The notes below the pieces were generated by a model. That model was not told where the DNA came from, ran no database searches, and worked only from the letters and a program-made list of their open reading frames with translations. Shown here in pieces: positions 457 to 39,480 of a stretch of 40,050 bases of DNA. Positions within the stretch are counted from its first letter, which is position 1; each line of letters starts with the position of its first letter. Origin of the DNA: Escherichia phage vB_Eco_D226; sequence record MN080711.1. One strand, written 5' to 3'. The translations under genes were made by a program, and so were the position numbers.

Positions 457-479
457 CTTCCCAATAGTGAGTCGTATTA
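457..479 (-). promoter_or_regulatory. Phage RNAP promoter phiOR
   Basis: Reverse strand reads TAATACGACTCACTATTGGGAAG, matching the window promoter consensus. Confidence 0.8.
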
Positions 480-545
480 GGGACACCCTTGATTTCATTA
501 GGTTTTTACACCTCACTCAATAGGGTGCCCATAGTGCATAGTGAG

Positions 546-992
546 TCACTTTACGTGCATATTTAGTTTACCCTCACGAGCCTTCTTGACCCACTGGATG
601 TTTACTCCAAGTTTCTTAGCCACTTCAGCGTCTGTACCGTCAGCCGAGAGTACGGCATTTAGTCTCTTATCAAACGCCTGTTGAACCTTCTCGGCGTGAC
701 TCAGGCGCGTACCAGAGGCACCTCCACGAATCATTCGGCCTTTAGTCCTACAGTCCTCAATGTTCTCTTTCTGTGTTCCCTCAGATAAGTGCGCTGGGTT
801 AACACACGCAGGGTTGTCACAGGAGTGCATCACCACACATCCTTCCTTTAAGGGACGCTTTAGGTGGACTGACAGTGCGTATCGATGTGCCATCCAATGA
901 ACACCATCAACACGAATCCTGCCATACCCACCTTTAGTCTTACACCCTTGGAAGATGTGGCAACCAGTTATACTATCAATTGCCACTCTCAT
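546..992 (-). CDS. HNH endonuclease (putative homing endonuclease), 148 aa
   Basis: Motif VMHSCDNPACVNPAHL...N typical of HNH nucleases; start MRVAIDSITGC with AGGAGGT 6 nt upstream; the ORF-track N-terminal extension overlapping gene 19 was trimmed. Confidence 0.8.
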   Translation of the reverse strand: MRVAIDSITGCHIFQGCKTKGGYGRIRVDGVHWMAHRYALSVHLKRPLKEGCVVMHSCDNPACVNPAHLSEGTQKENIEDCRTKGRMIRGGASGTRLSHAEKVQQAFDKRLNAVLSADGTDAEVAKKLGVNIQWVKKAREGKLNMHVK

Positions 993-1014
993 TATATACC
1001 TCCTATTATCTATA

Positions 1015-2775
1015 TTACCACTCAATGAAGCAGCTAGAGTCTCCATCGTCCTCATAGTAGATGTCCACGCCACCAACATCGTAGCTATGGATAGCATCGC
1101 CACCAATGGTCTGTTTCTCCATGTGATGTTCAAGGAACTCAAGAGTCATCTCTTCCTCACCGATACGACTGTCTACAAGCATCCCCTCGCGTAGCCATTC
1201 GATACCCAATGCGATAGCATCAAGTCGGTCATCGTGTGCCACAGCGCCTCGCTCACGAGTCATACGGGTCATCTGATAGAACGCACTGTAGCGAACATCA
1301 TGTTTCCCATCAAGGTCACGAGCAGTCTGGTAGTCCTCACGGATAACCTCATCACGAATGACCAGCTTGTGCGCACCCATCAACGGTTCGATAGTATCGC
1401 AGATTCGCATCTCCTTCATGCCTTTAGCACGGATTTCCTCTAAGGCACACTTGTGGTGCTTCAGGAGAATCGGAGAGAAAATCTTACCGAACATACCATC
1501 ACCGAAGTTGGACTCGTGGACGACTGTCTGTACCTTCCACTGCTTGGCCTTCTTAGCGAGCTTCTCTAGGGTAGCATCATCGTAACCACCACGGAACCCA
1601 CCGACTTCCATCAAGTAGATATAACCGTTAAGTGAGTAGAGGACTGCATACCCGGTCTCATCCTTACCACGACCACTTGGGTCAATGACCAGAATCTTAG
1701 ACTGATACTCAGCGGTACGAGAAGAGCACGTATGGAACGCATGGATGTCATCACCCTTCAGACCAACGTTAGGGAGTTCCTCATTGCGGTTCTGACGGTT
1801 CGGCAACCACTGGTAAGACAATGGGGCACGTTCGGGGTCCACAGCGCACACGATAGCATCACGGAGTCGTAGCGGGTACTTCTCGGCATCACTAAGGTTC
1901 GGGTTAAGCATGAACTGAAGCGTGTAGCCAGCTTTACCATATTCGAGTTCACGCTCACGGAGGTCATCCATGTCGAATCGAATAGGGTCAGTAGGTTGTC
2001 CACGAAGAATCTCGTAGCCTTCATCATATTCAGCCTTAAGCATCGGAGCCAAGCGGTCCCCATAGTAGAGAGCCTCAGCGTCATTACGTGGATACTGTGC
2101 AGGCCAGATTACAGTGCTGTACCCTTTGTTATCCTCAAGTTCCTTGTAGAGCGTCATCTCGGTTTGAGGTGTGCCAAGGTAGATAACACGAGAGGTAGGC
2201 AGTGGCTTAAGTAATGCAGCAAACTCAGTTACCAACGTCCAGAGCTTCTCACGGGCAGAACTCGTAGAGCTATTACCGGGAACCTCAACGTCATCTGCGA
2301 TGATGATGTCAGCACGGCTACCAGTTAACTGACCAGTGATACCCACAGACTTCACAGAGGGTGAGTGGTCAGGTTTAGCTAATCCAACGTCGAAGCTAAT
2401 CACGGAGTCACGCTGTCCCGGTCGAGGTTTCAACTCAGCGAGGAATGGCAGCAGGTCAATGATGTTCTTGATGAAGATGGAGTTAGCATCCGCACGTTCC
2501 TTAGAGGCAGACACTATGAGCACCTTAAGTTGAGGGTCACGCCATAAGACCCACACGACGAACGCACAGGTGATAAAGGACTTGCCGATACCACGGAACG
2601 CCTGAAGGATAAACTTCTTGTGGTCGCCGTTAGCGAGTGTACGTGCCATATCAATCTGACACTTGGTTGGTTTAGGTAAGTTCAGAGCCTTCCATAAGAC
2701 GAACAGGAAGGCCACGAAGTCACCCTTAAGTTGCGCAATGATTAATGCGTTCTTAGCTCCTTGGGATTGTGACAT
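1015..2775 (-). CDS. 19: Terminase large subunit (gp19)
   Basis: 586 aa, same length and strong similarity to T7 gp19 as recalled; last structural gene in T7 order. Confidence 0.97.
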
Positions 2776-3221
2776 TACTTAGCCTCCTTCTTAGTTTGCA
2801 TTTCTTTGATTGTACCTTGGAGCGCACGAATCCACGCATCCCCTCTTTGAGTTACTCCGATAAGACGCTTACTAAACTCTTCGTCAAGTTCGGCTCGACC
2901 ATCAACGAGGCATCCACCGTTATCTTGGAGTTCTCGTGAGGTGGCTGATAGTTTGACGCGCAAGCGCTTACCATCGTTACGCAAATCATTAATGACCCTA
3001 TCAGTGCTGCCTTCCAGCGCCGCAAGGTCTTCTTGGTATTGCTGTGAGATTTCGTTGATAGCAGCCTGTTTATCCGCAGTCGCCTCAACCTTCTTAACGT
3101 ACTCATTGTGCACCTCCTGTTCCCATTTAGTGTTAGCTTTGTCATAGCCGTGGTTATACGCAAGGGTAATTCCCAAGGCAAACGCAGCGATTATGGCGTA
3201 GCTCTTTAAATTCTTGAGCAT
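2775..3221 (-). CDS. 18.5: i-spanin (gp18.5, Rz-like)
   Basis: 148 aa, N-terminal TM segment followed by charged coiled coil; position between genes 18 and 19. Confidence 0.9.
2852..3106 (-). CDS. 18.7: o-spanin lipoprotein (gp18.7, Rz1-like) embedded in gene 18.5
   Basis: Alternate frame inside 18.5; [10 protein letters not shown]... with lipobox-like MVSAC and C-terminal SLMVEPNLT matching T7 gp18.7; start trimmed from the ORF track. Confidence 0.8.
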   Translation of the reverse strand: MSTLRRLRRLRINRLLSTKSHSNTKKTLRRWKAALIGSLMICVTMVSACASNYQPPHENSKITVDASLMVEPNLTKSLVSVLSE

Positions 3222-3279
3222 AACTACCCTCCCATATTTTCAGATTTCACGTAGCGTTACCGTGAGTTGTATTGAAATA

Positions 3280-3312
3280 TCATAAAGACCACTAGATGTA
3301 GTGGCCTTGAGT
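3280..3312 (-). promoter_or_regulatory. RNase III-like processing hairpin (R18.5 position)
   Basis: Inverted repeat aagaccacta/tagtggcctt upstream of gene 18.5, at the position of T7 R18.5. Confidence 0.4.
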
Positions 3313-3319
3313 TATTCCA

Positions 3320-3589
3320 TCAGTTTAGCGTGTACTTCTCATCTTCAGTGAGACCATCAGCACCCACTAGGTTCTGGTACTCTTCGAGTCCATCTGCCAG
3401 TCCACCAAGGATGTTACGGTCTGGCTGTAACTTGGAGACTTGGAACTTGTGGCGCTCTAACAGTTTCCCGATAGCGTTGTACAGTTGAGGTGTGCGCTTG
3501 TCATCATCCTGAAGGTCTTTCAGCATACGTTGAGCCATCTCAGTGTCCAGCATCTCAAGGAATTGAATTAAGGACTTATCGTTAGACAT
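3320..3589 (-). CDS. 18: Terminase small subunit (gp18)
   Basis: 89 aa; ALEMLDTEMAQRML...PQLYNAIGKLL...HKFQ matches T7 gp18. Confidence 0.93.
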   Translation of the reverse strand: MSNDKSLIQFLEMLDTEMAQRMLKDLQDDDKRTPQLYNAIGKLLERHKFQVSKLQPDRNILGGLADGLEEYQNLVGADGLTEDEKYTLN

Positions 3590-3788
3590 CTTTACCCTCC
3601 TTCTTCCATTTGATAATCACATCGACTACCTTGGCACCAATTTGAGCCACTGTGTAGGCAATTGCGGCTACATAGAACCACTCGTTAAGTGACAGTCCGA
3701 AGAACAGTCGGGCAGCACCATCGGCTACCCCTGTCCCTACAATCGGAGCCGCCTTGACAACTTCATTGTTGAAGTCTAAAGACAACAT
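3582..3788 (-). CDS. 17.5: Holin (gp17.5)
   Basis: 68 aa; MLSLDFNNE..KAAPIVGTGVAD...LFFGLSLNEWFYVAAIAYTV.QIGAKVVD is near-identical to T7 gp17.5. Confidence 0.93.
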   Translation of the reverse strand: MLSLDFNNEVVKAAPIVGTGVADGAARLFFGLSLNEWFYVAAIAYTVAQIGAKVVDVIIKWKKEGKDV

Positions 3789-3801: not shown

Positions 3802-4179
3802 TCAGCTTGTGGCTCTCAACTCAGCCATGAGCCTTAGAAGGTCTGCCTCGATGTCTGCTTTGGTTCGAACCACTGGTTCTTCTTTGTAAAACTTCTCACC
3901 ATCAAATCGAACACCGAAAGTGTTCTCAGGGAATGGGAAGTCATTTGTTAGAATCAGGATGCCACCATCGGCTGGGGAGTTCATCCCGTTGACCGACTTA
4001 GTGGTAGCCCAGTTGACGAAGCCATCTTTAACCCCGATGACCCATTTGTAGTCCCTGTTGTCCAACTCTACCATCATCTCATACCAGTCAATTCCATCCT
4101 CATTGAAGATGTCATAGGTAGAGATTCCAGTATCTGAATCCGTAACAACTGTGTATTTCCAGCCTTTGTAAATCTTCAT
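3802..4179 (-). CDS. Hypothetical protein downstream of tail fibre (possible fibre chaperone or adhesin), 125 aa
   Basis: Start MKIYKGW with GGAGG 8 nt upstream; no counterpart at this position in T7 (gene 17 is followed directly by 17.5). Function inferred from position only. Confidence 0.7.
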   Translation of the reverse strand: MKIYKGWKYTVVTDSDTGISTYDIFNEDGIDWYEMMVELDNRDYKWVIGVKDGFVNWATTKSVNGMNSPADGGILILTNDFPFPENTFGVRFDGEKFYKEEPVVRTKADIEADLLRLMAELRATS

Positions 4180-4192
4180 AATTAATACCTCC

Positions 4193-5920
4193 TTATCCTT
4201 GAGATGCAACCTGACGTTTATTACCGTTGTGATACCCTATCCACATGCCTCGGTGCTGCATACCAGTACAGACACCACCAACGTTGAGCACAATCCCAGT
4301 ACACACATGACCGGACCCAACAACAAGTTCCTGATAGGCACCATTGTGGGGATACCACTCAGGGTTAGCGAGCCAGATGTCACCGGGGAAGTTGGCACGA
4401 ATCCAATCCGCAATGTTGTTCTGAGGCCCGAATGCACTGCCGATGATGTTACCATCACCACCTAATACACTACCACCATGTGTTCTGAAAGAGCCAGAGA
4501 CTACCTGACGTGGGGCATGGAAGTCCCCATCATGCGTCCACATGTAGGAGGCATCTACAGCACCTGACTCATGCGTTGTTACCAAGTTCCATTGTGCAGT
4601 ACGGTTGGTATCTATAAGAGTACCCATTGTCCACGCTCGGGCATCTCGACCTGCTTGGTAAGAGCGCTGTTTGATTAGTGGGAAATACTCATTACCAGAT
4701 GACTCTCTAATTTGCTGCCACAATGGTGCATAAACATTATACTGGTCAGCATGTCCAGCAGCGAAGCTGGCCTGTGAATCAATAAGGTCTTTGGTAATTA
4801 CCCGGTTGTTTAATGTAGTGCGGGGATAGATGTCTAGCGTAGGAACACCCGATACCGGATATACGAAGTGCATATGCGTGAAAGCACCTCCGCCTACCTG
4901 ACCGCCCGGTAGTTCCATGACCAAATCAGAGTGCAGGGCGTTTCCTTCAGCCCATAACCCTTGCCGCCATACATGCGATGTGTTTTCACTTCTCCGTATC
5001 GCCGTGGCATTTGAGAATCTGTGAATCCCTTTCCAAACAACATCATTTCCACTTACGCTTTCAATTGCAGCGGCAATAGCATTATTATTCTCTAACTTGT
5101 TAGCTTCGAGTATTGCCCTGTCTTCTGAAGCCTTAGCGGCAACTTCTGAAGCCTTAGCAGCAACTTTTGACTCATTTGCCAATCTGGCATCCGCAGCAGC
5201 AGAACTAGCGGAAGAAGCGGCTTGTGTCTCAGAGATCTTCGACTTGTTGACTGATTCATCGGCCCACGCAGCATCCGCTGCTACCATCTTGCGCATCCGC
5301 TCAACGTCAGCTTGAATAGCCTTTGCCCACTCATTGTATTGCTTAGATGAGTATCGACCGTCTGCAATCACTCCGTCTCCAGCAGCCCAGCGCATAGACC
5401 AGTTAGCGGAAGATGCTGCTTCTGTCTTAGAGTTCCATGCTGATTCATTCCAGCCCTTTACCTGACCAAGATTGATAGCATCACCATCCTCTACAGCATT
5501 CGCTAGGTTCACAATGCGGCGACCACGCGCATCTAGGTTCCCATCGTTGTTAACGCCAATCGTATCCGCTGTTAAATCACGAGCCTCTTCAGCAACGTGA
5601 AGTGTCTGGATTTGAGCAATGTTCAGGTCATAAGCACGGAGGATAGAACCATCAGCAAAGTCCACCAGACGGTCGGTAACGGAGGTGTAACGACGAATCT
5701 CAATCATGGTGTATCCATCAGATGGACTCCACGCACGAGTGGTTGTGATTTGAGTCTTAGTGGTAAACCGGAAGTCCTGATTCAAGACCAACTCTTTGCG
5801 GTCTTTACCAATAAGAGTCACCGAAACGAACTTACGCGCTAGATACTCAAACGTGATACCGAAGTCCACAGTAGAGCCATTCAGCGGGTAAGTCATTACG
5901 GTACGAATTTTAAGAGCCAT
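4193..5920 (-). CDS. 17: Tail fibre protein (gp17) with divergent C-terminal receptor-binding region
   Basis: N-terminal ~150 aa (FEYLARKFV.VTLIG.DRK ... RLVDF.DGSILRAYDLN.AQIQT.HVAEEARDLT.DTIGVNNDG.LDARGRRIVNLANAV) matches T7 gp17; the remainder is unrelated to T7. Confidence 0.92.
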   Translation of the reverse strand: MALKIRTVMTYPLNGSTVDFGITFEYLARKFVSVTLIGKDRKELVLNQDFRFTTKTQITTTRAWSPSDGYTMIEIRRYTSVTDRLVDFADGSILRAYDLNIAQIQTLHVAEEARDLTADTIGVNNDGNLDARGRRIVNLANAVEDGDAINLGQVKGWNESAWNSKTEAASSANWSMRWAAGDGVIADGRYSSKQYNEWAKAIQADVERMRKMVAADAAWADESVNKSKISETQAASSASSAAADARLANESKVAAKASEVAAKASEDRAILEANKLENNNAIAAAIESVSGNDVVWKGIHRFSNATAIRRSENTSHVWRQGLWAEGNALHSDLVMELPGGQVGGGAFTHMHFVYPVSGVPTLDIYPRTTLNNRVITKDLIDSQASFAAGHADQYNVYAPLWQQIRESSGNEYFPLIKQRSYQAGRDARAWTMGTLIDTNRTAQWNLVTTHESGAVDASYMWTHDGDFHAPRQVVSGSFRTHGGSVLGGDGNIIGSAFGPQNNIADWIRANFPGDIWLANPEWYPHNGAYQELVVGSGHVCTGIVLNVGGVCTGMQHRGMWIGYHNGNKRQVASQG

Positions 5921-5955: not shown

Positions 5956-5978
5956 CTGTGTTAGCCTTCCCAATAGTG
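5956..5978 (-). promoter_or_regulatory. Phage RNAP promoter phi17
   Basis: Reverse strand CAATACGACTCACTATTGGGAAGG upstream of gene 17. Confidence 0.8.
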
Positions 5979-5989
5979 AGTCGTATTGA

Positions 5990-13307: not shown

Positions 13308-13330
13308 CTTCCCAATAGTGAGTCGTATTG
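13308..13330 (-). promoter_or_regulatory. Phage RNAP promoter phi13
   Basis: Reverse strand CAATACGACTCACTATTGGGAAG. Confidence 0.8.
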
Positions 13331-13358: not shown

Positions 13359-15734
13359 TTAGATACCAGAAGAACGACGCAGGTAGTTACCTTCCCAGCC
13401 ACAACCAATCACGTTAAGTGGCGTAGTGTGGTCAGAGGTGATACGGACAATGTTCAACTGCGCGTTGCCCGATACCGGGAACCTGAATTGACCTGTGCCT
13501 AGGTTTAATGCCCCAACTCTAAGAGCATTTGAGCCTAGCCGGGCACCTGCCATATTGTATCTGAACAACCTTGACGTGTTCTCGACCTCAATATCGAATG
13601 CACCAGAGTTCTCATAGTTTAGCCAAGCACGCCGAAGCTGCAATCGGCCTATGTCCTCGGTTGCTGTAGACCCATCGTCAGCGGCCTTCTTGATGAGGAA
13701 TTTAGAGAAGACGTACCGGAAGTTAATATTGAACCCTATGAATATTCTAGCACCCTCCTTGTTCCCATTTAGATACAGTTCAGGACTAACATACCAACCT
13801 TCAGGTGGCTCTTCAAATGTCTCAACCCTACCATCCATCTCAACAATAGAAATGTTTCCCTTCTGGAACCCCATTTTGTACACATCCCACAGATGTACCC
13901 GTGTCTTGTATGTGTCATCATTATAAGCACCAGAAGGTATTACATATTGTGTCTTGTTGTCCAGATAGATACGGTAAGGTTCGTCAGGGAAGTCCACAGA
14001 GTCTTTGGTGAACATAGCCTTAGCCAGCCAGATTTGTGAGGCATTCTCCAGAAGAAGGTACATAATTGACCCGATAGAGTCACATGCTCTAACCTTAACG
14101 TTCTCCCCAAGTTCCCAATGAGACCACGACTGTTGCGCAATCTCTTCGTTGAGGTATAGGAACTTGTATATGAACACCTTGCTCGGAGCGTTAGCAGATA
14201 GAACGGACACGAAGTTCTCAGTACCGGAACCACGAATGGAGAACACACCGTTAGGGATGTAACTCGGAACGTGAGCACTCATGTCCTCCGCAGACTTCAC
14301 GGAGCTAACATCCTGTACCGCATAGTAACGGTTGAGTGACGTATAGGAGGCACGAGGTGACGCAAAGTAAACACCACGCCCAATCCCATAAGGTCTCGCT
14401 CGGTCTGACACATCGAACTCGGTCGTAAGGTTCAACTCTACAGTCTTCGGTGAGAGGATACCGGAAGCAGACAACACGAACTGTGCTTGGTCTGACCATA
14501 GGAGTAACTCTTCAGAGAACGGCACAGCGTACTTCAGCAGTGAGATTCTGTTGTGAGAGACAGCCACGTCAATCGGGTCATCGTCTGATAGGTTAGCTAC
14601 GGAGGCCGGGAACAGGTTGAAATACTTCGAGGTACGGGACATCACAATGTTCTCACCAGCGAGGAAGCCTAAGCGGTTCCTGAAGAAGAACACATCGTTG
14701 ATTGTCTGACCTACCAGTGAAGGGTCGGGGTTAGTATCCATGTCACCACACTTACGGTCTTCCCAAGGTAGAACCTCAAGAGAGAACGAACCGTCTGGTT
14801 TACGAATCAGAGCGTGTGGCATCGAAGCCCTGTTAAGTCCAGACTGCACGTTCCACCCAACTACCTCCTTCCACACCTTACGTTCTGCATCATACTGAAC
14901 ATAGAAGGCATCAGAGGTCTTGGACGTATCACCAACTATCTGTACAGTGTATCCATGCGGAGCCTCAAGTGGTAACTTAGAGAATGACTGTGCCGTGTGT
15001 ACCACAGCGTTCATTAGTTGGTTTCCATACCCGTCCTTAGTCATCACTGTATCTACCTGATTACCTCCAGTGCTCTTAATGTGAATATATCCCTGTCCGA
15101 CTTCGATTGCCCACCCATATTGCGATAGGCTCTCTCTCAGTTTAGTGGCTAACTGTTCAGCAATCCATTGAGCATCGGTCTGGTTCACATGTTCGGGGGT
15201 GCTACCATCCGCAATAGTAAGTGATGCGTGTACACCGCCATTAATGCCAATCTGGAAGGTTCTCCCATACTGACCGCCACGGATGTTAATCAGGCAGTCA
15301 CCCTTGGGGTTCAGGGGGTATACTGGAATTGTGTTCGCAGATACTGTCCAATTCCGGTTAACGATGAACGTATAGTCTGCTACAGTAACCATACGGAGGT
15401 CATCTCGTGGATTTGGAGTACCAACGTAGGTCATATCACCAGTAACTTTATACTCTTTACCATCAAGGTCGAACACGCGGATAGTACCACCAGTGAACAC
15501 CACATAGTAACGCTCACGCTCATCTCGGTTAATCAAGTGAACGAGAGGGTTCGCCCCTAGACCACCAGCATCGCTAAGGGTCTTGATGAATACAAAAGGT
15601 GGCCTCTTCTGGAGACCTTCAGTTTCAGACGACCAGCCGTTAATCTGTTCGGCACCCTGTTCGGGGAACCTTAAGATGTCTGGTTGTTGACTGATACCGC
15701 CTTTCAGGTTCTTGACGGATTGTGAAATAAGAGC
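13359..15734 (-). CDS. 12: Tail tubular protein B (gp12)
   Basis: 791 aa from MALISQSVKNLKGGISQQPDILRF (T7 gp12 begins MALISQSIKNLKGGISQQPDILRY); C-terminus NVIGCGWEGNYLRRSSGI conserved; start trimmed from the ORF track. Confidence 0.95.
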   Translation of the reverse strand, partial: ALISQSVKNLKGGISQQPDILRFPEQGAEQINGWSSETEGLQKRPPFVFIKTLSDAGGLGANPLVHLINRDERERYYVVFTGGTIRVFDLDGKEYKVTGDMTYVGTPNPRDDLRMVTVADYTFIVNRNWTVSANTIPVYPLNPKGDCLINIRGGQYGRTFQIGINGGVHASLTIADGSTPEHVNQTDAQWIAEQLATKLRESLSQYGWAIEVGQGYIHIKSTGGNQVDTVMTKDGYGNQLMNAVVHTAQSFSKLPLEAPHGYTVQIVGDTSKTSDAFYVQYDAERKVWKEVVGWNVQSGLNRASMPHALIRKPDGSFSLEVLPWEDRKCGDMDTNPDPSLVGQTINDVFFFRNRLGFLAGENIVMSRTSKYFNLFPASVANLSDDDPIDVAVSHNRISLLKYAVPFSEELLLWSDQAQFVLSASGILSPKTVELNLTTEFDVSDRARPYGIGRGVYFASPRASYTSLNRYYAVQDVSSVKSAEDMSAHVPSYIPNGVFSIRGSGTENFVSVLSANAPSKVFIYKFLYLNEEIAQQSWSHWELGENVKVRACDSIGSIMYLLLENASQIWLAKAMFTKDSVDFPDEPYRIYLDNKTQYVIPSGAYNDDTYKTRVHLWDVYKMGFQKGNISIVEMDGRVETFEEPPEGWYVSPELYLNGNKEGARIFIGFNINFRYVFSKFLIKKAADDGSTATEDIGRLQLRRAWLNYENSGAFDIEVENTSRLFRYNMAGARLGSNALRVGALNLGTGQFRFPVSGNAQLNIVRITSDHTTPLNVIGCGWEGNYLRRSSGI

Positions 15735-15762
15735 CATTAGAGACCTCCTTATGTTATTACGA

Positions 15763-16353
15763 TTAGCGAGACAGAAGACCACCAGTGAAGGCATCACCAT
15801 CAAGCATGTTGAAGTTACCGAAGTCCAGTTCATACTCGGCACATTGCATCTTCGCTTCTTGCTCTTCTTCGGATAATACAGCGTCAATCTCAGGTGCTCC
15901 AAAGAATCGGTTGTTAAACTGTCGAGCAGCCTTGGTGACAATCCAGTAGCGGAAGCATTCCGGCATCTCGTAGAACTCTCGCAGTTTGATAATTGTCACT
16001 GTGATAGGTTCCTTAAAGACATCGGTACGATTGTCCCGGTCATACACGTAACCACCACGGTTAACATAGGCAGTGGCACCGCCATCCGAGAACACAGCCA
16101 AGTAGTCAGACATATAGGGAATCAATCCGTTGAACACATCAGGGAGCAACTGTTGGCCTTCCTCAATGTTGAACGTCCAGCCCTTAGATTGAATCTGACG
16201 GTTAATCTTATTGAGGATACGCCTAGCGTTCGCTACGTCTGCGTTGGCATCACCCTCAAGGGTCGATACTGGAGGTTCACCGATAGAGGCCAAGATGTCG
16301 TTGACAGCAGCCAACTCTTCACCTGTCTCAAGCGTTGTTTCATATGAGCGCAT
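15763..16353 (-). CDS. 11: Tail tubular protein A (gp11)
   Basis: 196 aa from MRSY...; [49 protein letters not shown] matches T7 gp11. Confidence 0.95.
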
Positions 16354-16382
16354 AGTTAAATGTCCTCCCATTAGTGAGTTGA

Positions 16383-16426
16383 AAAAAAAAACCCTCAAGC
16401 ACCCGCGAAGGCACCCAAGGGGTTTC
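16383..16426 (-). terminator. Tphi-like terminator for phage RNAP after the capsid gene
   Basis: Transcript reads AACCCCTTGGGTGCCTTCGCGGGTGCTTGAGGG followed by nine U; resembles T7 Tphi. Confidence 0.7.
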
Positions 16427-17778: not shown

Positions 17779-17801
17779 TCTCCCAATAGTGAGTCGTATT
17801 A
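17779..17801 (-). promoter_or_regulatory. Phage RNAP promoter phi10
   Basis: Reverse strand TAATACGACTCACTATTGGGAGA, directly upstream of the capsid gene leader. Confidence 0.85.
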
Positions 17802-20389: not shown

Positions 20390-20401
20390 AGTGCCTCCTT
20401 A

Positions 20402-21367: not shown

Positions 21368-21390
21368 CCTCTCAATAGTGAGTCGTATTG
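21368..21390 (-). promoter_or_regulatory. Phage RNAP promoter phi6.5
   Basis: Reverse strand CAATACGACTCACTATTGAGAGG. Confidence 0.8.
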
Positions 21391-21505: not shown

Positions 21506-22392
21506 AGGTAAATCTCCTTGTCGATAAAGTTGTACTCTTCGAAACGCAGGATGCGAGCCATCTGGCCCTGCTTAATGATTTCCTCTTCGGTCATCCCAGC
21601 TTTTGCACCAAGTGTCACAATGGCTTCCCATAAGGTTCTGTCACCCATGTCAACCTTCTTCCATTCGAGAACTGTCTGTCCCTTACGGGCACCAGACTTG
21701 AAAGTTTTCTCAACCTGTTCAAAGGCATACGGGTTCTCCAGCCACTCAGCGGTAGTCTCTCCCCAGCCCGGAATGCCACCATAGCCATCTGTCAAGTCAC
21801 CTTTGATGGTCTGATAGATGTGCCAGTAGTCGGCAGTCGTCTGGTCTTGAGTCAAGATGTTACCAGTGGTACACCACAAGAAGTCACAATCAGGGATGGT
21901 CTTAAAGTCCTTATCACAGGAGACCAGCACAGCCTTTTTGAAACCAAAGTGTTTAGCACCAGACCCAATGATTCCCATCACGTCATCACCCTCTAAGCGA
22001 GGCTCAAGGATAGACGTCCAGTCCTCAGAGGCTTGAACACGCTCGATGAACGCACGGTAGCCTACAGGCTTACGGGATGCCTTACGGTTCTCCTTATAGG
22101 TTGGGTCCACTAGTTCCTTACGCCAGTTCACAGCGTCCGTGAAGGCCAGTACGATAGGTGCATCACGCCAAGCCTTCTTGCGGCTCGCATAGGACTTAAT
22201 GGAGTCAACCAGAATGTTCCACGCTTTCCCGTGGTCGCACTCTAAGGTCCACACATCGTCACCCCAATCGGTCTCGACTTCACTTGCTGCCATAGCTTGG
22301 AATACCAGCCAGTCACCATCCATCACGAGAACACCCTTATCGGATTTCCCTTGGCGTAACTCGTAGAACTCCTTCAGTGTAATTGCGCTCAT
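21478..22392 (-). CDS. 6: 5'-3' exonuclease (gp6)
   Basis: Start MSAITLKEFYELRQG...GVLVMDGDWLVFQAM; FKTIP.CDFLWCTTGNILTQ and EEDIIKQGQMARILRF.EYNFIDKEIYLW match T7 gp6. Confidence 0.95.
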   Translation of the reverse strand: MSAITLKEFYELRQGKSDKGVLVMDGDWLVFQAMAASEVETDWGDDVWTLECDHGKAWNILVDSIKSYASRKKAWRDAPIVLAFTDAVNWRKELVDPTYKENRKASRKPVGYRAFIERVQASEDWTSILEPRLEGDDVMGIIGSGAKHFGFKKAVLVSCDKDFKTIPDCDFLWCTTGNILTQDQTTADYWHIYQTIKGDLTDGYGGIPGWGETTAEWLENPYAFEQVEKTFKSGARKGQTVLEWKKVDMGDRTLWEAIVTLGAKAGMTEEEIIKQGQMARILRFEEYNFIDKEIYLWSPEQLRS

Positions 22393-22598
22393 ACGCAACC
22401 TCCCATCTTCTTCAGGAATCGGACACCAGAGCCTGTTACTTCCCAAGCGCCAGCATTACGCCCATCGACTGATAGGCAAGAGATATGACCACGACTCGCA
22501 GCCTCAGCCACCAGTGACGCATTGTTGCGCACATAGTTCGACTGAAAGGTCTTAGGGCAGCTTTTGATAGCCGCCAGTACACGAAGATATTCACCCAT
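22389..22598 (-). CDS. 5.7: gp5.7
   Basis: 69 aa; YL.VL.AIKSCPKTFQSNYVRNNASLVAEAASRGHISCLS is near-identical to T7 gp5.7. Confidence 0.93.
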   Translation of the reverse strand: MGEYLRVLAAIKSCPKTFQSNYVRNNASLVAEAASRGHISCLSVDGRNAGAWEVTGSGVRFLKKMGGCV

Positions 22599-25463: not shown

Positions 25464-25486
25464 TCTCCCATTAGTGAGTTGAATAG
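25464..25486 (-). promoter_or_regulatory. Degenerate phage promoter-like element (phi4.7 position)
   Basis: Reverse strand CTATTCAACTCACTAATGGGAGA: the downstream half matches the consensus, the upstream half is divergent (A at -11). Confidence 0.35.
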
Positions 25487-25494: not shown

Positions 25495-25545
25495 CAAAAG
25501 TTAATCACGAAGGCCATCATTAAGATGACCTTTAGTTTAACTCTT
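25495..25545 (-). promoter_or_regulatory. RNase III-like processing hairpin (R4.7 position)
   Basis: Transcript forms aaggucauc/gauggccuu stem with a G.U pair; flanks are shared with the other hairpins in the family. Confidence 0.45.
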
Positions 25546-25846
25546 ACGCTTCAGCTTTTGCAGCCAGACTGATAGCTTCTTCGCCAGTCACCTTGGACAG
25601 TAGAAGTTCGCGGGTCTTGTCTTCACCTACAGCCACAGTAGCAGCTACAGCAACGGAGGCCAGCAGACGACCTGCCTGTGTGTCATCCAAAGTTACACGC
25701 TGTGTGTGCGCCTTGGTGGACTTGTGGTCCTTCCAACGGTAGACCAGAGTGACCTTGCCATTACGGACATTGATGTGCACTCGACGAGCATACTGGTCGA
25801 TGGTGTCAGACAGACGGATTGTGTTGCCGGGGAATTTAATAGCCAT
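25544..25846 (-). CDS. Hypothetical protein at the gene 4.5 position
   Basis: 100 aa ORF between genes 4.3 and 4.7; assigned by synteny only. Confidence 0.65.
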   Translation of the reverse strand: MAIKFPGNTIRLSDTIDQYARRVHINVRNGKVTLVYRWKDHKSTKAHTQRVTLDDTQAGRLLASVAVAATVAVGEDKTRELLLSKVTGEEAISLAAKAEA

Positions 25847-26115: not shown

Positions 26116-26138
26116 TGTCCCCTTAGTGAGTTCTATTG
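26116..26138 (-). promoter_or_regulatory. Phage RNAP promoter (phi4.3 position), divergent
   Basis: Reverse strand CAATAGAACTCACTAAGGGGACA. Confidence 0.55.
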
Positions 26139-28142: not shown

Positions 28143-28165
28143 CTCTCCCATAGTGAGTTCTATTA
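28143..28165 (-). promoter_or_regulatory. Phage RNAP promoter (phi3.8/4c position)
   Basis: Reverse strand TAATAGAACTCACTATGGGAGAG. Confidence 0.6.
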
Positions 28166-29905: not shown

Positions 29906-29928
29906 TCTCCCATTAGTGAGTCCTATTA
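29906..29928 (-). promoter_or_regulatory. Phage RNAP promoter phi2.5
   Basis: Reverse strand TAATAGGACTCACTAATGGGAGA. Confidence 0.75.
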
Positions 29929-30874: not shown

Positions 30875-30897
30875 TCCTCCATAGGTGAGTCGTATTA
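30875..30897 (-). promoter_or_regulatory. Phage RNAP promoter (phi1.6 position)
   Basis: Reverse strand TAATACGACTCACCTATGGAGGA. Confidence 0.6.
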
Positions 30898-30982: not shown

Positions 30983-31005
30983 TTCCTCCATAGTGAGTCT
31001 AATAG
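30983..31005 (-). promoter_or_regulatory. Phage promoter-like element (phi1.5 position), divergent
   Basis: Reverse strand CTATTAGACTCACTATGGAGGAA; mismatches at -17, -16, -13, -12. Confidence 0.4.
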
Positions 31006-31466
31006 ATGTGATTTCGAACATCCACTGCTTCCTCAAGTGTCCCGTATGTTCCATGAGACTTACCATTGATTCTCACAATAAAGTGTCCAGTTCTTTTGCA
31101 GGTGTGGATGTGGCGCGTTCCAGATTTGGACTGCTTTGGTACATTTCTGTTATACCCATTCTGGCTACGAGTTACCAACCGAAGATTCTCTATCCTATTA
31201 TTGGAAGGGTTTCTATCTATATGGTCTATCTCAAGCCCATCAGGTATTGCTCCAAAGTTTAGAATCCACACCAGCCTGTGTACCTGTATGTTCTTCTTCT
31301 CATGTTGCGTAGACCAGTACCCATCTTTTCTTAGAGTACCGCAGGGCTTTCCAGAACGCGAAAAGACCAACCCCGAAGGGCTGGCCTGATTGTATTTATA
31401 TTTTCTCGCATGGATTGCTTTCTGTTCCACGGAACATTTCGAAGGAAGGGTGACGCAACGAGCCAT
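30999..31466 (-). CDS. HNH homing endonuclease (HNH_3-type with C-terminal AP2-like DNA-binding region), 155 aa
   Basis: Motif EIDHIDRNPSNNRIENLRLVTRSQN; GGAGG 6 nt upstream of ATG; the 5' end overlaps the last ~70 nt of the ligase gene. Confidence 0.85.
   Translation of the reverse strand: MARCVTLPSKCSVEQKAIHARKYKYNQASPSGLVFSRSGKPCGTLRKDGYWSTQHEKKNIQVHRLVWILNFGAIPDGLEIDHIDRNPSNNRIENLRLVTRSQNGYNRNVPKQSKSGTRHIHTCKRTGHFIVRINGKSHGTYGTLEEAVDVRNHIY
31357..31384 (-). terminator. Intrinsic terminator-like hairpin just after the ligase stop (TE position), inside the HNH coding sequence
   Basis: Transcript CCAGCCC-UUCG-GGGUUGG followed by UCUUUUCG; T7 carries the early host-RNAP terminator TE immediately after gene 1.3. 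Confidence 0.45.
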
Positions 31467-32421: not shown

Positions 32422-32460
32422 GATGGAACTCCTTTAGTGTGTCGGTTAATAAGTAATCAA

Positions 32461-32506
32461 AAGTTAATCACAAAGGCCATCATTAAGATGACCTTTAGTT
32501 TAACTC
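32461..32506 (-). promoter_or_regulatory. RNase III-like processing hairpin (R1.3 position)
   Basis: 47-bp element nearly identical (1 mismatch) to the hairpin at 25495-25545. Confidence 0.45.
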
Positions 32507-32529
32507 TTTCGCAATAGTGAGTCGTATTA
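32507..32529 (-). promoter_or_regulatory. Phage RNAP promoter phi1.3
   Basis: Reverse strand TAATACGACTCACTATTGCGAAA. Confidence 0.75.
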
Positions 32530-32799
32530 CTTCCAGTGCTTCAGGTCACTGTGTACCTTACGAAGCCATTCAGTCTGTGCATTGCAGCGAACGTCTTCAT
32601 CGTCCTGTTCGAAACACTTGGAGGTTAACACTAATCCATTCCGCAAGACCACTCGAAGAGTCTCACCGGATACCCAGCGCATCCTCGCATAGTTCTCATA
32701 GCGGAAAGTCTCAACGACCACACTCACATCGTGGTCTTCTTTGAGTCGTTCGATAGCGTCTTTGTATGCTATTAAGTTACCACTGTATAAGCGACCCAT
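32527..32799 (-). CDS. 1.2: gp1.2 (host dGTPase inhibitor homologue)
   Basis: 90 aa; MGRLYSGNL.A.K.A and DEDV..N..T.WL.......LK.WK match T7 gp1.2. Confidence 0.9.
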   Translation of the reverse strand: MGRLYSGNLIAYKDAIERLKEDHDVSVVVETFRYENYARMRWVSGETLRVVLRNGLVLTSKCFEQDDEDVRCNAQTEWLRKVHSDLKHWK

Positions 32800-33037: not shown

Positions 33038-33060
33038 TTTCCCATTAGTGAGTCGTATTG
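33038..33060 (-). promoter_or_regulatory. Phage RNAP promoter phi1.1B
   Basis: Reverse strand CAATACGACTCACTAATGGGAAA. Confidence 0.75.
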
Positions 33061-33661: not shown

Positions 33662-33684
33662 GCTCCCAATAGTGAGTCGTATTA
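33662..33684 (-). promoter_or_regulatory. Phage RNAP promoter phi1.1A
   Basis: Reverse strand TAATACGACTCACTATTGGGAGC; transcript starts with a GGGAGCC-UUCG-GGCUUCC hairpin. Confidence 0.8.
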
Positions 33685-33691: not shown

Positions 33692-36343
33692 TTAGGCAAA
33701 CGCAAAGTCTGACTTAAGGATTTCTTGCAGGTCCAGAGAACCTTTAGCTGGCATCTCAGGCATCTGGTCAAGCTGCGATTCGTGTAACTGGTCAGCAAAT
33801 TGCTCATAGAAGTCTGCGAGTACATCGTTTTCTTCATAGGTGTTCACCATCGTTTCACGCACTGCTTTAAACAGGTTGCCAGCATCAGCAGGGATAGTAC
33901 CAAAGGAGTCGTGAATCAGTGCGAACGATTCCACACCGTAGACCTCATTGGAGCGGACCACAGTCATGCGCAGGTGGCTTCCATCCATTGAGTGAACAAA
34001 GTTAGGTGCGATACCTGACTCCTGCTTACGTGCATCAATGCCGCTATCCTTGTTGGTGTTCACGGTAGGCTGTAGACGAATCTGGCCTAAGAACATCAGG
34101 TTCAAGCGGGTCTGTACTGGCTTCTTGTATTCCTGCCAGACCGGGAAGCCATCAGGAGTAACCCAATGTACCGCACAGCGCTTACGGAGAACCTCTTTGG
34201 TCTTCTTGTCCTTGACTTCAGCAGCCAGAAGTTTAGCGGCAGACTTCAACCAGTTCATCGCTTCAACCGCTGCGACAACTGTGACCGTTACAGCGTTCCA
34301 AATCAGTTTAGCCATGTAGCCAGCCGCTTGGTTCGGTTGAGTGAACATCAAGCCCTTGCCATCGTCGATAGCTGGCTGAATGATGTCCTCAAGAACTTGG
34401 TCGCGGAAGCCATACTCTTTGGAGCCGTAAGCCAACGTCATGACCGAACGCTTAGTGACCTTGCGAGTCACACCGTAGGCCAGCCACTGACCAGCTAACT
34501 CTTTCGTTCCCAGCTTGAGCTTCTCAGTGATTTCACCAGTGTCCTTGTTTGTCACGGTTTCCACTTCGTTATCAGTGCCATTGATTACCGCTTCGCGGAG
34601 CATCTCGTTCACACGTTCGGCAACGATGCGATAGATGTCTTGTACTTCCTTGCTTGGCAGCAGGTTAACCGCACGCCCACCGACTTCATCGCGGAGCATT
34701 GCAGAGAAGTGCTGAATACCAGAGCAAGAGCCATCGAACGCCAGCGGCAGAGAGCAGTTGTAGTGCATACCGTGGTGTTGCACACCTGCATACTCAAAGC
34801 AGAATGCTAGGAAGCAGAACGGAGAATCTTGTTCAGCCCACCAAGTGTTAGCAATCGGGTCAGCAGCAACGCTCATGATGTTCTCGTGGTTGTCATCAAT
34901 GAACTTGATGCGTTCTGCAAAGTCCACCTTGTCCACGCCAGCAGTGTTAGCACCGTGAATCTTCAGCCAGTAGTACCCATCGACACCAATCGGTTTACCC
35001 TTAGCCAAGGTCAGCAGCCCTTTGGTCATGTCGTTGCCTTGCGGGTTAAACATTGGGACTGCATACACACGACCGCGCCAGTCCATGTTCATTGGGAACC
35101 AGATAGCTTTGAACTGTGCGAACTTATTGGCCTGACCTAACATGAACTCCATGCTCATGCGGCGTGACACTCGTGCCTTCTCTTTGCGATAGATTGCGGA
35201 GGCCGCTTTCTTCCACGCTTTCAGAGCCGCTTCGTTCGTGTCGATGTCTTCAGGTTTGACCGGGAGTTCCCCACGTTCGAGAGCAGGTACATCGTCAACC
35301 GGGCAATGCTTCCAGTTCACAATCTCGTTGACCACTGCCAGAACCTTCTTGTTAATCTTCCAAGGTGTATTCTGTGCTATGTTCACCGCCTTGTAAACTT
35401 CAGGCATGTGCACGTCGTTGTAACGCTCTAATCCCTTCTTGCTACCAGTGCGAACCAGAGAGAGAGGCTTGCGTCCAGCAGCCCAATAGCCACCACCTAC
35501 CGGAGAAGTCCAAGGCTTCGGAGGGACTACACAAGGTTGGTACATCGGAGCGATTGCAGCCAGTGCACCAGCACGTTTAGACAGCAGGTCTACATATTGT
35601 TCTGTTAACTGGATGTACTCACCATCCTTCTCAACGTTACCAGCAAACGGTCGGTGTAACTCAACGAGACCAGTAGACCCGATGAGCAGTTCCAACATGC
35701 GCACACCAACGTGAATTGATTCTTCAGGTGTCCATGTAGTCCACTTGGTTTGCAGTTGACCAGCGTCTAACATCTTGCCTTCTACAGCTTGCATGAATGC
35801 TTTCTTGTAGACGATACCAACGCGCTTGTTCAGTGCCTCCTGTACGTGGTTCTTAAAGTGCTTCGCTTCTTCGTCACGGATGCGACCAAAACGCAATTCA
35901 TCCTCAATACTGCGACCAATCTTAGTGGCGACCGATTGCAGGTTGGTGAACTCTTCTTTCGTCAAGCAAGCGAGTGTGACCTTCAGTGTGATGAAAGCAG
36001 CCGCTTCAGGTGCAACCTTCTGTACCAGATTGTAGGCTACTGGACGCTTGCCACGCTTCGCTTCCACCTCGGTGAACCAAGCGTTCCACGCCTCGATAAA
36101 CTTCGGTGCGAGAGATGACAGGAGCGGTTTAGCCACTGCGTTATCACCGAACTCACCCGCTTTGATTTGACGTTCCATTGCCTTAAGAAAACGCTTCTCA
36201 CCCTCAGTGTGCGCTTCGTGCTCAAGCTGTAACTGCGTAGCTGCAAGCTGTGCACCGTAATGGTCAGCCAGAATGTTGTATGGCATGATTGCGTTAGCGA
36301 TGTCAGAGAAGTCGTTCTTTGGTGCGTTGATTACGTTAGTCAT
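33692..36343 (-). CDS. 1: DNA-directed RNA polymerase, single-subunit (gene 1)
   Basis: 883 aa, same length as T7 RNAP; catalytic and finger motifs conserved (NMDWRGRVYAV, FCFLAFCFEY, PLAFDGSCSGIQHFSAML, RSVTKRSVMTLAYGS, FALIHDSFGT); specificity loop QPTVNTNKDSGIDARKQ keeps the T7-type Asn. Confidence 0.98.
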   Translation of the reverse strand: MTNVINAPKNDFSDIANAIMPYNILADHYGAQLAATQLQLEHEAHTEGEKRFLKAMERQIKAGEFGDNAVAKPLLSSLAPKFIEAWNAWFTEVEAKRGKRPVAYNLVQKVAPEAAAFITLKVTLACLTKEEFTNLQSVATKIGRSIEDELRFGRIRDEEAKHFKNHVQEALNKRVGIVYKKAFMQAVEGKMLDAGQLQTKWTTWTPEESIHVGVRMLELLIGSTGLVELHRPFAGNVEKDGEYIQLTEQYVDLLSKRAGALAAIAPMYQPCVVPPKPWTSPVGGGYWAAGRKPLSLVRTGSKKGLERYNDVHMPEVYKAVNIAQNTPWKINKKVLAVVNEIVNWKHCPVDDVPALERGELPVKPEDIDTNEAALKAWKKAASAIYRKEKARVSRRMSMEFMLGQANKFAQFKAIWFPMNMDWRGRVYAVPMFNPQGNDMTKGLLTLAKGKPIGVDGYYWLKIHGANTAGVDKVDFAERIKFIDDNHENIMSVAADPIANTWWAEQDSPFCFLAFCFEYAGVQHHGMHYNCSLPLAFDGSCSGIQHFSAMLRDEVGGRAVNLLPSKEVQDIYRIVAERVNEMLREAVINGTDNEVETVTNKDTGEITEKLKLGTKELAGQWLAYGVTRKVTKRSVMTLAYGSKEYGFRDQVLEDIIQPAIDDGKGLMFTQPNQAAGYMAKLIWNAVTVTVVAAVEAMNWLKSAAKLLAAEVKDKKTKEVLRKRCAVHWVTPDGFPVWQEYKKPVQTRLNLMFLGQIRLQPTVNTNKDSGIDARKQESGIAPNFVHSMDGSHLRMTVVRSNEVYGVESFALIHDSFGTIPADAGNLFKAVRETMVNTYEENDVLADFYEQFADQLHESQLDQMPEMPAKGSLDLQEILKSDFAFA

Positions 36344-37977: not shown

Positions 37978-38178
37978 TCAGTCATTCCAGCCTGCACATG
38001 TTGCTTGGTGTATCACGCAGGCTTGGTATTCTTCCTGCGCCAAAACCTCGTTCACCCAATGCGTGACTTGTTTACCGTATCGTACAACGTAGGTTCTTCC
38101 CATTGCCCCGTGATCATACTCTCGCAGTGTTACAGTGCATTGACCTTTGATTTTAGATGTTGCCAGAAGTTTACTCAT
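37978..38178 (-). CDS. Small hypothetical early protein (66 aa)
   Basis: Start MSKLLATSKIKGQ with AGGA upstream; first ORF after the SAM lyase gene. Confidence 0.5.
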   Translation of the reverse strand: MSKLLATSKIKGQCTVTLREYDHGAMGRTYVVRYGKQVTHWVNEVLAQEEYQACVIHQATCAGWND

Positions 38179-38204
38179 GGTGTTAGTCCTATTGCATGTT
38201 AAAG

Positions 38205-38250
38205 TGATAATCATGAAAGGCCACTCATATTGAGCGACCTTGAGTTTATC
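38205..38250 (-). promoter_or_regulatory. RNase III-like processing hairpin (R0.5 position)
   Basis: Transcript aaggucgcuca/ugaguggccuu, an 11-bp stem with G.U pairs; conserved flanks gtgataatcat...ccttgagtttatcac. Confidence 0.45.
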
Positions 38251-38252
38251 AC

Positions 38253-38711
38253 TTACTGTACTTGCCAGCGGCGACCGAACTCATCAATGGTGAAGCAGCC
38301 TTTCAGTGCCTCGGTGCGTGGGACTTCTTGGAAGCTACCGTGCAGACGTTCAGCTTTATAACCATCAATGCCTTTAGCGTACACTAAGCCAGCCGTGTGA
38401 GTCTGTGACTTATAGACCAGTACACAATCTTGCTCGAACTCATTACACGCCAGACGTGCGACCGCTATTGCTTGAGCTTTGTTAGCACAGCGTACACGAA
38501 CAGTCAGTTCCTCAGTTGGTGCACTTGCGATAGCCTCCCGATAACAACCAGTCAAATCTGTAGACTCAACGCTACCGTATTCAAGCGGTGCATTACGCAG
38601 TGAGTTAACCATGTGACGATGACGACTCATATTGACTTCATCGCAGAGGTTAGAGCGGAACGCTGATACCAGTACATAGAATACGTTTGCAGGTTCGTTA
38701 GTGTAAATCAT
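38253..38711 (-). CDS. 0.3: S-adenosyl-L-methionine lyase (T3-type SAMase, anti-restriction), gene 0.3
   Basis: 152 aa; EPANVFYVLVSAFRSNLCDEVNMSRHRHMV...SVESTDLTGCYREAI...CVLVYKSQTHTAGLVYAKGIDGYKAERL.GSFQEVP...GCFTIDEFGRRWQVQ matches T3 gp0.3 as recalled, not T7 Ocr. Confidence 0.9.
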   Translation of the reverse strand: MIYTNEPANVFYVLVSAFRSNLCDEVNMSRHRHMVNSLRNAPLEYGSVESTDLTGCYREAIASAPTEELTVRVRCANKAQAIAVARLACNEFEQDCVLVYKSQTHTAGLVYAKGIDGYKAERLHGSFQEVPRTEALKGCFTIDEFGRRWQVQ

Positions 38712-38724
38712 GATAGTGCCTCAT

Positions 38725-38790
38725 TATGTGTTAGTGATTATCATTAAAGAGCACACGTTGTTACTTAATGTATGCCCTTGAGTTAATCGC
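38725..38790 (-). promoter_or_regulatory. RNase III-like hairpin candidate upstream of gene 0.3 (R0.3 position)
   Basis: Shares flanks gtgattatcat...ccttgagttaatc with the hairpin family; the stem is less regular. Confidence 0.3.
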
Positions 38791-38959
38791 TATCGGCGTT
38801 ATCACTGTTTAAACGCTTGTGCGTTCACGTCATCCCGTAGTTCTTGACTACCTGTCTCGCAGTAGGGAATTACACGACCATATTGTTAAAGAACTTTAAG
38901 TGCAGGTTTCGTTAGCACCGAGTCACTTTCAGTGTGTGACCTCACAAGAACGTTATATA

Positions 38960-39001
38960 GTGCATGTGGTACAGCTTACAGTTTTTAAAGGAGACTGTCA
39001 A
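38960..39001 (-). promoter_or_regulatory. Host sigma70-type early promoter (A3-like)
   Basis: Reverse strand TTGACA, 17-nt spacer, TAAGCT, then GTACCACATG; T7 A3 carries a similar GTACCACATG context. Confidence 0.45.
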
Positions 39002-39109
39002 CCTGTTATTCTTTTATGCGATGAGTGACCGAATTCGACTCACGGCTAGTGCCTTATCCGTTGGCGGGTCACGGGCAGGTTTCTCGGTTCCTATCCCTAC
39101 ACCCTTACT

Positions 39110-39150
39110 GCATGTCGTACATCTTACATCTTATCGTTACTGCTTGTCAA
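39110..39150 (-). promoter_or_regulatory. Host sigma70-type early promoter (A2-like)
   Basis: Reverse strand TTGACA, 18-nt spacer, TAAGAT. Confidence 0.5.
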
Positions 39151-39204
39151 CTACTTTTGTTTCTCACCGTGACACCTCATGTTGTTTCAGAGGGCGACCA
39201 GTTG

Positions 39205-39245
39205 TTGACGACTGCTATACTACGTTATTGCTTTCGTTGAGTCAA
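39205..39245 (-). promoter_or_regulatory. Host sigma70-type early promoter (A1-like)
   Basis: Reverse strand TTGACT, 17-nt spacer, TAGTAT. Confidence 0.4.
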
Positions 39246-39457
39246 CCACTTTCGTATGTCTGGTTGATGACTACTTGAGACACTTCAGCTTTACTAGATA
39301 ACTCGCGGTCTTGTCTAGTAGTTGGTAGCGTTGTGTCTCTCAACGGTCGCTATAGTCTCATAGCTGTTTCTTAGAGTCAATACTTAAAGTAACAAATAAT
39401 CGTCTTTAAGTGTCTTTAAGTTATCCCTATAAGGAATGGGAATAGTAATAGACACTC

Positions 39458-39480
39458 ATCCTCAATAGTGAGTCATATTA
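39458..39480 (-). promoter_or_regulatory. Phage RNAP promoter phiOL
   Basis: Reverse strand TAATATGACTCACTATTGAGGAT near the left end. Confidence 0.65.

Follow-up and report, generated by a model that had tools for sequence, protein, structure and literature searches.

The 40,050 nucleotides (nt) of sequence record MN080711.1, from Escherichia phage vB_Eco_D226 (hereafter the window, meaning the whole stretch analyzed), very probably represent a complete genome, that of a lytic podophage of the T7 group belonging to the genus Berlinvirus and to the lineage of BA14, 285P, Kvp1, and Berlin, with the normal traits of that lineage rather than those of a T7 × T3 hybrid. The traits at issue extend from position 457 to position 39480, the outer edges of the promoters phiOR and phiOL. 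Its promoter set, its T7-type RNA polymerase, and its S-adenosylmethionine (SAM) lyase are the standard Berlinvirus layout and have already been described as such. A preliminary description of the same DNA had instead read this combination as a mosaic, in which T7-like transcription specificity was joined to T3-like early and structural genes.

Placement in Berlinvirus and probable T7-type promoter recognition

Megablast comparison with 50,697 phage records (INPHARED, August 2025) places the window among the Berlinviruses, with Enterobacter phage vB_SEqdws-315 as the best match, followed by pO103, P694, 285P, BA14, BSP161, PYPS50, FE44, and Kvp1. Expressed as identity multiplied by aligned fraction, similarity to the window is 86.3% for vB_SEqdws-315, 81.6% for 285P, 80.8% for BA14, 80.0% for Kvp1, and 73.2% for Berlin, and 52.0% for T7 and for T3 alike. 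At 73.2-86.3% to five members of Berlinvirus (Studiervirinae), the window lies above the ICTV genus threshold (at least 70% whole-genome nucleotide identity, as quoted in PMC13600099). The gene order is that of the T7 group: collinear tblastn matches to BA14 extend from gene 0.3 through 19.5, and a gene for a single-subunit RNA polymerase is present. The minus strand carries every long open reading frame (ORF) and every promoter match, and the GC content is 48.41%. With the species line drawn at 95% or more genome identity to a described phage, no described Berlinvirus species in the August 2025 INPHARED release reaches it, the best value being 86%; the window phage is probably a new Berlinvirus species. 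It is also distinct from 6phi10, a Berlinvirus published in 2026, which carries a RecBCD inhibitor, is nearest to BSP161, shows only 85.8% similarity to vB_SEqdws-315, and has a GC content of 48.75%.

The polymerase encoded by gene 1 (33692-36343, minus strand; 883 amino acids) is 98.3% identical to BA14 gp1 and 99.0% identical to that of vB_SEqdws-315, and 76.0% and 74.4% identical to the polymerases of T7 and T3, respectively. Its specificity loop, YKKPVQTRLNLMFLGQIRLQPTVNTNKDSGID (34034-34129, minus strand; T7 residues 739-770), holds R746, N748, R756, and Q758 as in T7. Translation of 34034-34129 places Asn748 within QTRLNLMF, at codon 34100-34102; this residue is kept in the window, whereas T3 has Asp there. 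The AT-rich recognition loop, KAKRGKRPV (T7 residues 93-101; 36041-36067, minus strand, coordinates computed from residue numbers), contains a KRGKRP that is identical to T7 in alignment, the T3 counterpart being KKGRKP. In the T7 specificity loop, R746 is a base-reading residue. The summary in PMC5937735 assigns N748 to positions -10/-11, R756 to -9, and Q758 to -8.

Promoters were sought with a 23-nt pattern, allowing up to three mismatches, and with the core ACTCACTAWWG, expected counts being taken from shuffled sequences. The pattern gave 10 matches (0.00 expected) and the core 18 (3.25 expected), all on the minus strand. A fuller scan, guided by the promoter annotation of BA14 and Kvp1, recovered 17 phage-polymerase sites from phiOR (457-479) to phiOL (39458-39480), with the consensus TAATACGACTCACTATTGGGA(A/G)A. 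The preliminary description had counted about 16 promoters with a shared consensus, and this claim is borne out: there are 17, all on the minus strand and none expected by chance. Further promoter-like sequences, such as those at window 531-553 (TAAAGTGACTCACTATGCACTAT) and at reverse-complement position 7602 (TTAACCGACACACTAAAGGAGTT), were not counted, as they break positions that are otherwise invariant or lack the G-rich start.

Across the 17 sites, the consensus from -17 to -5 is TAATACGACTCAC, equal to that of T7, and the bases from -10 to -5 are invariant in 17/17 and identical to T7. The sequence features of the T7-type specificity class are thereby represented: R746, N748, R756, Q758, the AT-rich loop, and this -17 to -5 consensus. 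Those of the T3-type class are not, given Asn rather than Asp in the specificity loop and window promoters that read ACGACTCAC at -12 to -5, where the T3 core is CCCTCACTAAAG. From the same contact residues and the same recognition sequence, we straightforwardly infer that recognition specificity would be shared with T7; the window's -17 to -5 region would equal that of T7 because the polymerase reads it with the same residues. The preliminary description had likewise proposed both the -17 to -5 identity and a T7-type polymerase, and the position table of the 17 sites, together with N748 and KRGKRP, agrees with it. It had also reported the specificity-loop Asn as retained, which is correct, but had located it in a quoted peptide, QPTVNTNKDSGIDARKQ; this peptide is present but covers T7 residues 758-774, and Asn748 is found ten residues upstream of it.

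The base at -1 and the promoter sites

The sole consensus difference between the window and T7 promoters is at -1. The window has T at 14 sites, G at three (phi1.5, phi3.8, and phi4.3), and A at none, and T7 has A at 16 and T at one (Fisher p = 1.3e-5). Alignment of the promoter copies, a check suggested in the preliminary description, therefore upholds across 17 sites its claim that T stands at -1 where T7 has A. At -2, which it had also presented as departing from T7, the variability is real (T 10, A 7) but the departure is not, as T7 varies alike (T 12, A 5).

T at -1 is favored in every Berlinvirus examined, and it also occurs naturally with T7-type polymerases elsewhere. In T7 itself, phi2.5 reads TAATACGACTCACTATT and then AGGGAA, with T at -1; its in vitro yields are reported to be comparable to those of class III promoters in the part of PMC3683919 that cites Coleman et al. 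(2004). In Escherichia phage C5, a Teseptimavirus with a polymerase that shares 98.9% identity with that of T7, phi2.5 (C5 9080-9102) is TAATACGACTCACTATTGGGAGA, exactly the Berlinvirus consensus. Stenotrophomonas phage IME15, which has a T7-type N748 loop, shows a mixture of TA, TT, TC, and AA at -2/-1, and in T3 promoters -1 alternates between A and C. Substitutions at -1 are also said to have been modest in effect in the T7 promoter mutagenesis attributed to Imburgio and coworkers in 2000. In view of the variation at -1 in T7 phi2.5, C5 phi2.5, IME15, and T3, we read T at -1 as a lineage preference within the initiation region, most likely neutral or mildly tuning and reflecting no change of specificity.

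By homology with T7, host RNA polymerase would transcribe the early region, with genes 0.3 (SAM lyase), 0.7 (kinase), and 1, and the gene 1 polymerase would then transcribe the rest of the genome from 17 like-oriented promoters. At each promoter, the phage polymerase would use its AT-rich and specificity loops to bind -17 to -5, melt -4 to -1 (a TATA-like initiation segment that includes the -1 T), and start at the G of GGGAGA. A scan of the early region for sigma-70 promoters gave only weak, near-chance matches (4 vs. 1.8 expected).

Several points weigh against a neutral lineage preference at -1. The absence of A from -1 (0/17 sites) is stronger than drift alone predicts, and all 17 promoters are sequence predictions. 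Further, a 2026 paper, citing Mertens & Hausmann (1982), relays at second hand that cross-transcription showed the BA14 polymerase/promoter system to be functionally unlike those of T7 and T3. Were this discrimination between BA14 and T7 real, a feature beyond the shared code would have to be responsible, with -1 and the intercalating hairpin as candidates, and neutral drift at -1 would no longer hold. It is in this sense that the -1 base could be functional: the Berlinvirus and T7 polymerases would share a binding code and yet be partly orthogonal through -1 and co-adapted elements such as the intercalating hairpin, which is indeed strongly divergent (T7 RQNAGVVGQDSE vs. window RPFAGNVEKDGE). 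The restriction of -1 to T or G, never A, in 17/17 window sites and across the genus, set against A in 16/17 T7 sites, would fit such a scheme as well. If it were true, promoter discrimination would sit in the initiation region and not in the recognition region, and near-identical promoters would be reconciled with the old BA14 report. We nevertheless consider a functional -1 quite unlikely, given the natural occurrence of T at this position with T7-type polymerases, the alternation of A and C in T3, the conservation of V237 and W422 in the window polymerase, and the modest mutational effects noted above.

A lineage preference at -1 remains our preferred reading. The Berlinvirus consensus shows that T at -1 can be preferred by a polymerase with the T7 recognition code, which may be useful for the design or prediction of T7-type promoters. 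As a separate observation, the T3 reference record annotates, at 32757-32779 upstream of gene 17, a T7-type promoter sequence that is unused by the T3 polymerase, an instance of how promoter-like sequences can cross lineages without function.

The individual sites, all on the minus strand, are closely matched in related records. Base-for-base identical to their counterparts in BA14 (EU734171) are phiOR (457-479, TAATACGACTCACTATTGGGAAG), phi17 (5966-5988) and phi13 (13308-13330), both CAATACGACTCACTATTGGGAAG, phi10 (17779-17801), which is the full consensus TAATACGACTCACTATTGGGAGA and is identical through 8 nt downstream as well, phi9 (18768-18790, TAATACGACTCACTAATGGGAGA), phi4.7 (25464-25486, CTATTCAACTCACTAATGGGAGA), phi2.5 (29906-29928, TAATAGGACTCACTAATGGGAGA), phi1.6 (30875-30897, TAATACGACTCACCTATGGAGGA), phi1.5 (30983-31005, CTATTAGACTCACTATGGAGGAA, with G at -1), and phi1.1 (33038-33060, CAATACGACTCACTAATGGGAAA). 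Orthologous to BA14 promoters are phi6.5 (21368-21390, CAATACGACTCACTATTGAGAGG), phi1.05 (33662-33684, TAATACGACTCACTATTGGGAGC), and phiOL (39458-39480, TAATATGACTCACTATTGAGGAT). The phi4.3 promoter (26116-26138, CAATAGAACTCACTAAGGGGACA) has G at -1 where that of BA14 has T, whereas phi3.8/4A (28143-28165, TAATAGAACTCACTATGGGAGAG), also with G at -1, has the same sequence in BA14, Kvp1, Berlin, 285P, and vB_SEqdws-315. The phi1.3 promoter (32507-32529, TAATACGACTCACTATTGCGAAA) is shared in sequence with vB_SEqdws-315, 285P, and Berlin. A phi11-like promoter (16364-16386, TTTTTCAACTCACTAATGGGAGG) occupies a position at which Kvp1 and T3, but not the BA14 record, annotate phi11. Next to it is a Tphi-like terminator hairpin with a T run (16392-16421, minus strand; a 13-pair stem with 6 G-C pairs), at a position that matches the BA14 T-phi (labelled phiTE). 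This hairpin is followed by ten T, and the T run supplies -17 to -13 of the phi11-like promoter, so that terminator and promoter overlap.

Gene content and the question of a T7/T3 mosaic

The product of gene 0.3 (38253-38711, minus strand; 152 amino acids) matches the Pfam family S-AdoMet_lyase PF23780 (E = 1.4e-41; 142 bits against a curated cut-off of 28) and shares 86.8% amino acid identity with T3 gp0.3 over 152 residues, 81.6% with that of BA14, and 99.3% with that of vB_SEqdws-315. It is a T3-type SAM lyase, for which SAM cleavage and anti-restriction activity are predicted by homology. A search of the window for Ocr (T7 gp0.3) found no homologue, the best tblastn match (E = 1.6) covering 14 amino acids inside gene 1. 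The preliminary description had likewise called gene 0.3 a T3-type SAM lyase rather than Ocr.

Within Berlinvirus, gene 0.3 exists as two alleles, one shared by the window and vB_SEqdws-315 and the other by BA14, Kvp1, and 285P. They are 78% identical in nucleotide sequence, below the genome average of ~89%, and each is ~80% identical to the T3 gene, above the genome average of ~71%; phage Berlin lacks gene 0.3 altogether. Two divergent alleles, and a member without the gene, indicate that gene 0.3 has its own history, which points to an old exchange or polymorphism and not to a recent hybrid.

The evidence for a recombinant origin extends somewhat beyond gene 0.3. No T7 match was found for genes 0.3, 0.6, and 1.05; identity to T3 is 69% for gp0.6, 71% for gp1.1 (with T7, a non-significant 40%, E = 0.03), 61% for gp1.2 (with T7, 39%), and 51% for gp5.5 (with T7, 37%). 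These similarities, together with the separate history of gene 0.3, are what favors a mosaic in which a T7-type transcription module (polymerase and promoters) was joined to T3-type early and structural modules, and the early content is indeed T3-like, as had been claimed, for several genes (0.3, 0.6, 1.05, 1.1, and 1.2). The same cannot be said of the structural content. Amino acid identities to T7 and T3, respectively, are 80% and 83% for gp8, 78% and 80% for gp10, 72% and 72% for gp11, 66% and 64% for gp12, 71% and 57% for gp13, 49% and 44% for gp14, 61% and 62% for gp15, 63% and 63% for gp16, and 80% and 79% for gp19; outside this group, they are 76% and 74% for gp1 and 74% and 74% for gp5. 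With structural proteins near-equal in their identity to the two phages, the structural genes are not T3-like, and the polymerase is similarly equidistant. At the level of the whole genome, T7 and T3 are equally similar to the window, as given above, and identity over the parts aligned to them is ~71%. No segment lies near either phage; even gene 0.3, the most T3-like, reaches only 79.5% nucleotide identity. The whole genus, moreover, has the same architecture. Taken together, sequence comparison suggests that the reading of this genome as a T7 × T3 mosaic, which we consider very improbable, is already largely refuted in favor of the standard layout of the genus.

Absent genes had also been part of the case for a mosaic. 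Neither gp5.9 of T7 and T3 nor gp7 of T7 has a significant tblastn match in the window (best E = 0.3-0.45). Genes 5.7 (22389-22598) and 6 (ORF 21478-22446) overlap, leaving no room for 5.9 in this region (21478-22598, minus strand), and the same 5.7-to-6 junction occurs in BA14 and 285P. Between genes 6.7 and 8 (18788-20389), gene 7.3 (20402-20758) stands with gaps of <20 nt on either side and with no gene 7 or 7.7; this order (18788-20758, minus strand) is also that of BA14, 285P, Kvp1, and T3. The reported absence of 5.9 and 7 thus holds, and 7.7 is missing from its T7 position, but an HNH homing-endonuclease ORF after gene 19 (546-1142, minus strand; Pfam HNH_3; phrog_6254, E = 2.6e-59) is a distant relative of T7 gp7.7 and gp2.8, with 38% identity to gp7.7 (E = 1e-15). 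T3, for its part, carries gene 5.9, so the absence of 5.9 is no T3 trait and speaks against the mosaic. A SAM lyase combined with the lack of genes 5.9, 7, and 7.7 is ordinary gene content for the lineage.

Two other ORFs vary among relatives. A second HNH homing-endonuclease ORF (30999-31466, minus strand), which overlaps the ligase gene at its 3' end just upstream of phi1.5, has an identical counterpart in vB_SEqdws-315 and none in BA14; a terminator scan found no TE-like terminator after the ligase gene. Between genes 0.3 and 0.6 lies an ORF of 78 amino acids (37978-38214, minus strand; phrog_6500), which has no counterpart in BA14, vB_SEqdws-315, T7, or T3 and is 96-99% identical in HZ2R8, CICC 80001, P694, and about 150 other T7-group records.

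The real mosaicism of the window genome is within the genus and lies in the adsorption genes. Gene 12 (13359-15941, minus strand) is 94% identical in nucleotide sequence to that of P694, but its protein shares only ~75% identity with the BA14 and vB_SEqdws-315 proteins. In gp17, the distal half (gene 17 positions 4193-5020, minus strand) has 80% amino acid identity to P694 and no more than 41% to any further phage. After gene 17, an ORF of 135 amino acids (3802-4209, minus strand), similar to tail-fiber assembly proteins (phrog_136, E = 3.6e-6), is 93% identical to P694. With the adsorption genes nearest to P694 and the rest of the genome nearest to vB_SEqdws-315, it looks as though a host-range module has recombined within the genus.

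A 55-nt direct repeat has copies at 25495-25549 and 32458-32512 that are 96% identical. On the minus strand, both form long interrupted hairpins, with energies of -19 and -22 kcal/mol and z values of -5.2 and -6.3. One is located immediately upstream of phi4.7 and the other immediately downstream of phi1.3, where T7 and T3 have their RNase III sites R4.7 and R1.3. The exact hairpin core occurs only once in vB_SEqdws-315, and the two hairpin sites may have been homogenized in the window genome.

The ends of the window (1-115 and 39936-40050) are 100% identical over 115 nt, apparently an overlap within a circularly permuted assembly rather than the true terminal repeat of the phage; unique sequence comes to ~39.9 kb, and the contig is given on the reverse strand. 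The left genome end of BA14 aligns near window position 39847 (minus strand), from which a mature genome length of ~40.1 kb and a repeat length of ~190 bp would follow.

Relation to described phages

The significance of this genome is small: it contributes a further probable species to a genus of many members, and promoters, T7-type polymerase, and SAM lyase were already on record for BA14 and Kvp1. The preliminary description had held that it would fall if whole-genome alignment revealed essential identity to one well-characterised phage with promoters already described in this way. Such a comparison bears out that refutation in spirit, given promoters described in close relatives, but not to the letter, the best of these relatives reaching only 86% and not being identical. 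A full-text literature search for the exact 23-mer TAATACGACTCACTATTGGGAGA returned no paper; the earlier description is that given by the BA14 and Kvp1 annotation in GenBank and by the logo figure of the Kvp1 paper. The papers examined on new phage polymerases make no mention of Berlinviruses. An IMG/VR scan for the exact 23-mer returned 18 stretches, mainly Berlinvirus genomes, with three outside the genus.

The closest record, vB_SEqdws-315 (OK663600), shows 92.5% identity over 93% of the genome and has the same HNH ORFs and promoters, but differs in gene 12 and distal gene 17, which are P694-like in the window. BA14 (EU734171 / NC_011040) is collinear with the window, at 89.5% identity over 90% of its length; its 2008 record annotates 16 promoters reading TAATACGACTCACTA(T/A)TGGGAGA at the same positions, and it likewise has a SAM-lyase gene 0.3 and lacks genes 5.9, 7, and 7.7. 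The window differs from it in carrying the other gene 0.3 allele (81.6% amino acid identity), an additional HNH ORF following the ligase gene, the 78-amino acid ORF, a different distal tail fiber with a Tfa-like ORF, a gene 12 product with 75% amino acid identity, and G at -1 of phi4.3. Phage 285P likewise lacks gene 5.9 and has the same promoter sites, which are also found in Berlin and vB_SEqdws-315. For Kvp1, T3-like gp0.3, 0.6, and 0.7, promoter logos, and promoters closest to those of Berlin were described by Lingohr et al. (2008; PMC2579914); like the window, Kvp1 has the same promoter set with an annotated phi11 after the terminator, and a tail-fiber assembly gene after gene 17. Both Kvp1 and Berlin, unlike the window, carry gene 5.9, and Berlin also lacks gene 0.3.

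The two better-known relatives stand further off. T7 shares with the window the -17 to -5 consensus, the GGGAGA beginning at +1, the R746/N748/R756/Q758 residues, the AT-rich loop, and the overall gene order, but it differs in having A at -1 in 16/17 promoters, Ocr rather than a SAM lyase, genes 5.9, 7, and 7.7, and a polymerase that is 76% identical. T3 shares the SAM-lyase gene 0.3, homologues of genes 0.6, 1.05, and 1.1, the lack of genes 7 and 7.7, and a phi11 after Tphi, but it differs in its promoters (AATTAACCCTCACTAAAGGGAGA), in the Asp at the N748 position, in its AT-rich loop, and in the presence of gene 5.9.

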